Shown here: piece after piece, positions 8,716 through 8,940 of the stretch
Numbering within the stretch: position 1 is the stretch's first letter
Layout: each line of letters starts with the position of its first letter
DNA from: Escherichia coli
GTDB lineage: Bacteria; Pseudomonadota; Gammaproteobacteria; Enterobacterales; Enterobacteriaceae
Length of the DNA stretch: 64,000 nt
Direction: 5' to 3' (one strand)
NCBI RefSeq assembly: GCF_003991155.1
Contig: NZ_CP031293.1
Translations under genes and position numbers: made by a program
The notes under the pieces: model-generated
Told to the model about the DNA's origin: nothing
What the model saw: the letters and a program-made list of their open reading frames with translations, nothing else
Database searches by the model: none

Positions 8716-8730
8716 TGCAGCTGCATGCTG

Positions 8731-8768
8731 ATGCCGGATGCGGCGTGGACGCCTTATCCGGCCTACAT
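8731..8768. repeat. REP (repetitive extragenic palindromic) element
   Basis: atgccggatgcggcgtggacgccttatccggcctacat matches the classic E. coli REP consensus; located just after the artM stop. Confidence 0.75.
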
Positions 8769-8789
8769 AGTGCATAAATTCTTATAATG

Positions 8790-8827
8790 AAGACGGACAA
8801 CTCACTAAGTTGTCCGTCTTTTTTTAT
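8790..8827 (+). terminator. Rho-independent terminator downstream of artPIQM
   Basis: Perfect stem agacggacaa / ttgtccgtct followed by a run of about 8 T. Confidence 0.7.
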
Positions 8828-8940
8828 TTCATTTAAATTATTTAATCATATTTATTGCATATAAATTCACTTGATGGCATTGTTATCCCATGCCGCAGAC
8901 ACGGCCAAAAATCATAAGATTGACAGACGGGAGTTCCATC

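Follow-up and report, generated by a model that had tools for sequence, protein, structure and literature searches.

The 225-bp spacer between artM and artJ in this Escherichia coli DNA is very probably a conserved regulatory core, consisting of an intrinsic terminator and a promoter/operator, that bears one passenger repeat, a single Y-class REP (Table 1). The spacer occupies exactly positions 8716–8940 of the window, by which we mean the whole stretch of 64,000 nucleotides that was analyzed. Bases 8600–9000 were 100% identical to several complete E. coli chromosomes, in which the flanking genes are annotated as artM and artJ, and the artJ product matched Pfam SBP_bac_3, as fits a family-3 solute-binding protein. 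An earlier note on this DNA had described a canonical REP (8731–8768) followed by a strong intrinsic terminator (8790–8827), together separating artPIQM from artJ. Both elements were found where the note had put them, with ends correct to within 1–2 nt, and the separation agrees with the published observation that artJ has its own σ70 promoter with two ARG boxes (PMC6640053). The features of the spacer are ordinary and of kinds already known: textbooks or published papers cover REPs, the variation of BIMEs in copy number, intrinsic terminators and the control of the artJ promoter by ArgR.

Table 1. Features of the artM–artJ spacer and its borders (positions are those of the window).
Feature	Position	Strand	Basis or detail
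artM, arginine ABC transporter permease, last artPIQM gene	8047–8715	+	ORF; Pfam BPD_transp_1; annotation in identical genomes
artM stop codon TAA	8713–8715	+	ORF
Single Y-class REP palindromic unit	8732–8766	+	33/35 to published Y query; hairpin; copy number
IS621-target-like REP tail ATCCGGCCTAC, 11 nt	8756–8766	+	CT core present; position 4 is C
Conserved TGCATAA motif	8771–8777	+	Between REP slot and terminator
Rho-independent artPIQM terminator	8789–8829	+	Scan; fold energy; positional conservation; covariation
ArgR operator	8833–8871	+	ARG box match; 21-bp register; cross-species consensus; PMC6640053
Predicted artJ σ70 promoter	8855–8883	+	Conservation; -35 TTGCAT (8855–8860), 17-bp spacer, extended -10 TGGCATTGT (8875–8883)
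Small hairpin GCCG-CAGACA-CGGC (GCCGCAGACACGGC)	8892–8905	+	Consensus GCCgCAgACAcGGc; near predicted artJ mRNA 5' end
artJ Shine-Dalgarno GGGAG	8929–8933	+	Sequence; annotation in identical genomes
artJ start codon ATG	8941–8943	+	Sequence; annotation in identical genomes

The terminator hairpin (8789–8821) has 14 base pairs and runs into seven consecutive T residues at 8819–8825. In its core stem, GACGGACAAC (8792–8801) pairs with GTTGTCCGTC (8809–8818) across a loop at 8802–8808. Folded alone, the hairpin had an energy of -20.6 kcal/mol (z = -8.1), and none of 200 shuffled sequences folded as well, in keeping with the strength that the earlier note had ascribed to it. The GC-rich stem of 10–14 bp, the loop of 5–7 nt and the run of seven T residues are those of canonical Rho-independent terminators, and we noted no difference from that class; the element lies on the artM strand, 74 nt downstream of the artM stop codon. 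For comparison, the locus was retrieved from 120 other Enterobacterales species with a degenerate pattern in artM, and in about 85 of them the stretch from artM to the artJ operator contained a GC-rich hairpin with a T-run. The stem sequences vary from genus to genus at a constant position, and an alignment of 44 Enterobacteriaceae hairpins contained compensatory double changes in six of the eight consensus stem pairs, which supports the stem itself. Taken together, the positional conservation in about 85 species and the six compensated pairs argue that the terminator is an old feature under selection. (A second terminator-like hairpin with T-runs lies at 9678–9701 of the window, between the convergent genes artJ, on the plus strand, and rlmC, on the minus strand, and is probably a shared or bidirectional terminator for the two.)

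The other part of the conserved core lies immediately downstream. That artJ and artPIQM have separate, ArgR-controlled σ70 promoters is taken from the literature, where ArgR was shown to bind two 18-bp ARG boxes with 3 bp between them, placed so as to overlap the -35 element of artJ (PMC6640053). Scored against the ARG-box consensus WNTGAATWWWWATTCANW, the sequence at 8854–8871, ATTGCATATAAATTCACT, had one mismatch and ranked first among the ARG-box matches across the 64-kb window; this is box 2. Box 1 is predicted at 8833–8850 from the 21-bp register, which puts it 3 bp from box 2. It is a weak match (four mismatches), yet conserved as TTAATCAT. In spacing and in overlap with the promoter, the pair has the sequence arrangement of the two-box operator to which ArgR binding was demonstrated (PMC6640053). 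The artJ promoter was not among the plus-strand calls of a simple promoter scan, and it was therefore assigned from conservation: the extended -10 element TGGCATTGT and the -35 hexamer TTGCAT were nearly invariant across genera in the cross-species comparison. This assignment is consistent with the ARG boxes' published overlap with the -35 element, and the exact -35 and -10 elements, like the transcript ends, are to be read as predictions. At the artP end of the operon, the control region (5731–5791) contained an ARG-box match at 5774–5791, with two mismatches, and a TTGAATAAT-containing sequence about 40 bp upstream of it, a layout consistent with the published control of artPIQM by ArgR and Lrp.

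Downstream of the predicted promoter, the small hairpin at 8892–8905 was conserved across genera and was part of the minimum-energy fold. In Citrobacter, ACCG...CGGT variants preserve the pairing. This hairpin may be a 5'-terminal stabilizing stem-loop on the artJ mRNA.

The terminator and the promoter/operator are, by these comparisons, the conserved core of the spacer, and the REP is of a different character. The sequence at 8732–8766 (TGCCGGATGCGGCGTGGACGCCTTATCCGGCCTAC) matched 33 of the 35 positions of the Y-type REP query TGCCGGATGCGGCGTAAACGCCTTATCCGGCCTAC, the one used by Durrant et al. (PMC11208160), with E = 9e-11 in a blastn-short search within the window. Against a REP consensus it had one mismatch, where shuffled sequences gave a chance expectation of no matches. 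It folds, at -21.3 kcal/mol, into an imperfect hairpin in which 8 bp and a 1 × 1 mismatch are followed by 4 bp and a loop of 4 nt. The REP ends in CTAC at 8763–8766 on the plus strand, read as GTAG on the minus strand; the artPIQM mRNA would carry the REP in this inverted orientation, ending in CUAC. The unit is extragenic, with the artM stop codon (8715) on one side and the artJ start codon (8941) on the other, and it is highly repeated: a 42-nt query around the REP found at least 40 places per chromosome, with 5,425 of 5,426 complete E. coli genomes giving any match. REPs are defined as imperfect palindromes of 20–50 nt with a conserved stem mismatch or bulge and a flanking GTAG tetranucleotide (PMC8266576), and the class was also judged against the definitions in bioRxiv 10.64898/2026.03.23.713779. 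At the level of sequence, 8732–8766 has every defining feature of a group-2 Y REP, and the earlier note was right to call it canonical. It shares with the E. coli Y palindromic unit (the group-2 REPs of the TnpA-REP/RAYT "REPtron") the imperfect palindrome of about 35 nt with its internal mismatch, the GTAG/CTAC tetranucleotide, the extragenic position in a 3' UTR, the presence in many copies and an almost exact agreement with the Y consensus.

Since the K-12 RefSeq feature table lists no REP at the artM–artJ locus, the identity of the unit rests on these sequence tests. An Rfam search gave no match at the gathering score, the only hit of note being a sub-threshold match at the REP to naRNA4, a family that derives from REP325; to our knowledge, Rfam has no REP family. 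Elsewhere in the window, a partial Z1-type REP match (16/17, CGCGTCTTATCTGGCCT) was found at 45919–45935 on the minus strand.

The number of REPs at the locus differs between strains. The window has a lone unit, and there is no BIME at its artM–artJ locus, a BIME requiring at least two alternating REPs with a linker; in other strains this place is taken by Z-Y, Y-Z-Y or Y-Z-Y-Z-Y. The comparison with K-12 that the earlier note had proposed showed that the Y REP is shared, and also that K-12 has a second, inverted Z-type REP, which the note had not foreseen, as 66 bp inserted upstream of the Y unit that both have. This two-REP, K-12-like form was present in 3,426 of the 5,426 complete E. coli genomes (about 63%) and the one-REP form of the window in about 36%, while an evenly spaced sample of 59 E. 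coli genomes contained 37 two-unit and 22 one-unit spacers. In a further 41 of the 5,426 genomes, many of them O145:H28, a Y-Z junction directly follows artM, as in the three- and five-REP alleles. Strain EC974 has three units in a 328-bp spacer and O145:H28 has five in a 431-bp spacer, so that the locus presents an allelic series of one (Y), two (Z-Y), three (Y-Z-Y) and five (Y-Z-Y-Z-Y) units with spacers of 225, 290, 328 and 431 bp. A BIME is thus present at this locus in K-12, EC974 and O145:H28. Outside these strains, E. albertii has Y-Z, and the divergent Escherichia strain E69 (CP089930.1) has the K-12-like Z-Y. On its left, the single Y of the window is flanked like the first Y of the longer alleles, and on its right like their last Y; it looks like either the seed of the series or the remnant of a longer allele that collapsed when two of its Y copies recombined.

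No REP-free allele was seen among the E. coli genomes examined, either in the counts from 5,426 genomes or in the sample of 59. REP-free spacers are found in other genera, including many Citrobacter, Klebsiella, Enterobacter, Leclercia and Kluyvera; these are about 150–180 nt long, and the hairpin follows the artM stop codon after only 5–30 nt. One common slot holds differing sets of REPs in Escherichia, in Salmonella and in the Citrobacter freundii group. By this comparison, the REP is a lineage-specific insert of variable copy number, placed between the artM stop codon and the TGCATAA motif.

TGCATAA is the one unexplained item of the spacer. In a set of 85 slots (84 species loci and the window), TGCATA was found 16–22 nt upstream of the hairpin in 46, and in 47 (46 species and the window) the motif lay 84–86 bp upstream of the TGCAT of ARG box 2, a spacing of about 8 helical turns. 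Conservation of the motif extends to about 46 Enterobacteriaceae species; its flanking positions are not conserved, and all REP and BIME insertions lie upstream of it. The left half of an ARG box has a similar sequence, and one possibility is that the motif would act as an auxiliary ArgR half-site aiding repression of artJ by the hexamer. Alternatively, it may work at the level of RNA within the artPIQM 3' UTR, as a processing site or an sRNA/Hfq contact site just ahead of the terminator, for instance; a search of the literature for an artM 3'-UTR sRNA found nothing relevant. Two further candidates, a σ54 -12 element and a -35 element for TATAAT at 8783–8788, were rejected on account of unfit spacing and upstream bases. 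We consider it rather unlikely that TGCATAA is a functional element in its own right, and give the same low rating to the separate idea that the series of one, two, three and five REP units is a natural dial on art expression.

With these elements in place, transcription from the artP promoter would stop at the hairpin and U-run, at about 8825–8829, and artJ would then be transcribed from its own promoter, repressible by arginine through ArgR. The REP would be transcribed within the artM 3' UTR, after the stop codon and ahead of the terminator, and would not be needed for termination. Any effect that it has would most likely be that of a second stable hairpin, slowing 3'-to-5' exonucleolytic decay of the artPIQM mRNA once the terminator hairpin had been breached. 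REP hairpins are described as exonuclease barriers and context-dependent 3'-UTR regulators in bioRxiv 10.64898/2026.03.23.713779, according to which their effects depend on context and terminal REPs are not generally tied to longer half-lives. The identities of the elements, the conservation and covariation of the terminator and the polymorphism of the REP are observed, and the account as a whole, of a regulatory core with a passenger REP, is one in which we place high confidence.

The closest known cases are the REPs that stabilize upstream mRNA or attenuate read-through, in malE–malF (Newbury et al. 1987) and, as REP325, in yjdMN (bioRxiv 10.64898/2026.03.23.713779). There, as here, a REP hairpin ends the upstream cistron of a transport operon. 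The malE–malF and yjdMN REPs lie between co-transcribed genes with no intrinsic terminator nearby, whereas the terminator hairpin in the art spacer follows the REP by 23 nt and the next gene has its own promoter. By this analogy, a smaller effect of the REP would be expected here. The REP may add nothing, given the strong terminator 23 nt downstream, and the polymorphism in its presence or absence fits neutrality equally well.

Taken to its end, this line of reasoning makes the REP a neutral, selfish passenger, spread by a REP-associated transposase or by recombination, with no effect on art expression and persisting for no other reason than that insertions are tolerated in the slot upstream of TGCATAA. 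Most related genera lack the REP and their spacers still work; within E. coli the copy number goes from one to five with the core undisrupted; the contents of the slot differ independently in Salmonella and Citrobacter; and the strong hairpin just downstream already protects the 3' end. Against this, REPs in comparable 3' UTRs measurably affect stability and read-through in some operons, and the slot is filled in every E. coli genome examined, which could reflect selection or simply ancestry. We rate complete neutrality at a little under an even chance. A more active role seems quite unlikely, in which the REP would make transcription pause or would partly terminate it through Rho, forming with the intrinsic terminator ahead of which it lies a tandem stop that shields artJ from artPIQM transcription. 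Some REPs are partial Rho-dependent terminators (bioRxiv 10.64898/2026.03.23.713779), but the REP-free relatives rely on the intrinsic terminator alone, and the start of the art REP, a mere 17 nt past the stop codon, would leave little untranslated RNA for Rho to load on. We retain the reading of a conserved core with a passenger REP whose effect, if it has one, would be on the decay of the artPIQM message.

The earlier note had also pointed out that REPs are preferred targets of IS621, and had listed the art REP as another potential integration site, unoccupied here. The general statement holds: 144 of 173 mapped IS621 sites are in REPs (PMC11208160), and the window has an IS621 of its own in a Z2 REP. 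This is a complete, active-looking IS110-family element of 1,279 bp (52639–53917, minus strand) with ends matching the published IS621 and a transposase of 326 aa (52745–53725), inserted at the natural target ATCAGGCCTAC so that TTATCAGGCCT precedes the element and ACGCAG follows it. The junction of the insertion can be written ATCAGGCCT/AC. At its left end the element is slightly unlike the published bridge-RNA region, with TTAGGTTTTCAACC here and TTGGGTTCTAACC in the published sequence.

For the art REP to serve IS621 as a realistic docking site, its tail would have to pair with the bridge RNA, and the element would insert after the CT core at 8763–8764. The tail ATCCGGCCTAC, which BL21 also has, contains the same CT core as the natural target REPs, with their Z-type tail ATCAGGCCTAC, and agrees at 10 of the 11 target positions. 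It differs at position 4, which is C rather than the A of the natural target or the G of the guide-encoded target ATCGGGCCTAC, and so it is an exact 11-nt match to neither. Those two targets account for 96.2% of insertions, and the mismatch tolerance of IS621 is low except for wobble at position 4 (PMC11208160); a C at this position would set dG opposite the G of the guide. Two IS621 copies in Y-like REPs elsewhere sit at ATCAGG and ATCGGG tails, and the Y REP in the same BIME as the IS621 of the window (52567–52601), which has the ATCCGGCCTAC tail (ATCCGG), is unoccupied. The supplement of PMC11208160 does contain a few natural targets that read ATCCGGCCTAC under an IS621-type guide, as well as a related IS110 group with a guide that matches ATCCGGCCTAC exactly, and rare use of this tail by IS621, or its use by IS110 relatives, is possible.

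The genome collection speaks against such use at this locus. A chimeric query, in which the art REP was joined to the IS621 left end and at least 80% coverage was required, found no art-REP::IS621 junction in any of the 5,426 complete E. coli genomes. The contiguous spacer was present in 5,383 genomes, and 41 had no contiguous match. An IS insertion in these 41 was considered and rejected, as exactly 41 genomes carry the expanded three- or five-REP allele; from the equal counts, we infer that the two sets are the same. Uninterrupted spacers with one, two, three or five REPs account for every genome except two, and these size classes therefore leave next to no space for a large insertion of any kind between artM and artJ. 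The claim that the site is unoccupied was borne out, and extends to all 5,426 genomes. The claim that it is a potential integration site kept its CT core and its 10 matching positions, and lost ground to the C at position 4 and the absence of junctions; we regard it as highly improbable that the art REP is a realistic docking site for IS621.

These observations imply that REPs are not all IS621 sites: at position 4, the tail of the Y class, ATCCGGCCTAC, departs from the preferred targets, a distinction that is useful for predicting off-targets of bridge recombinases. The artM–artJ spacer itself is a clean natural allelic series, in which one, two, three or five REPs are combined with a conserved core, and it can be used to test the influence of REP number on 3'-UTR function.
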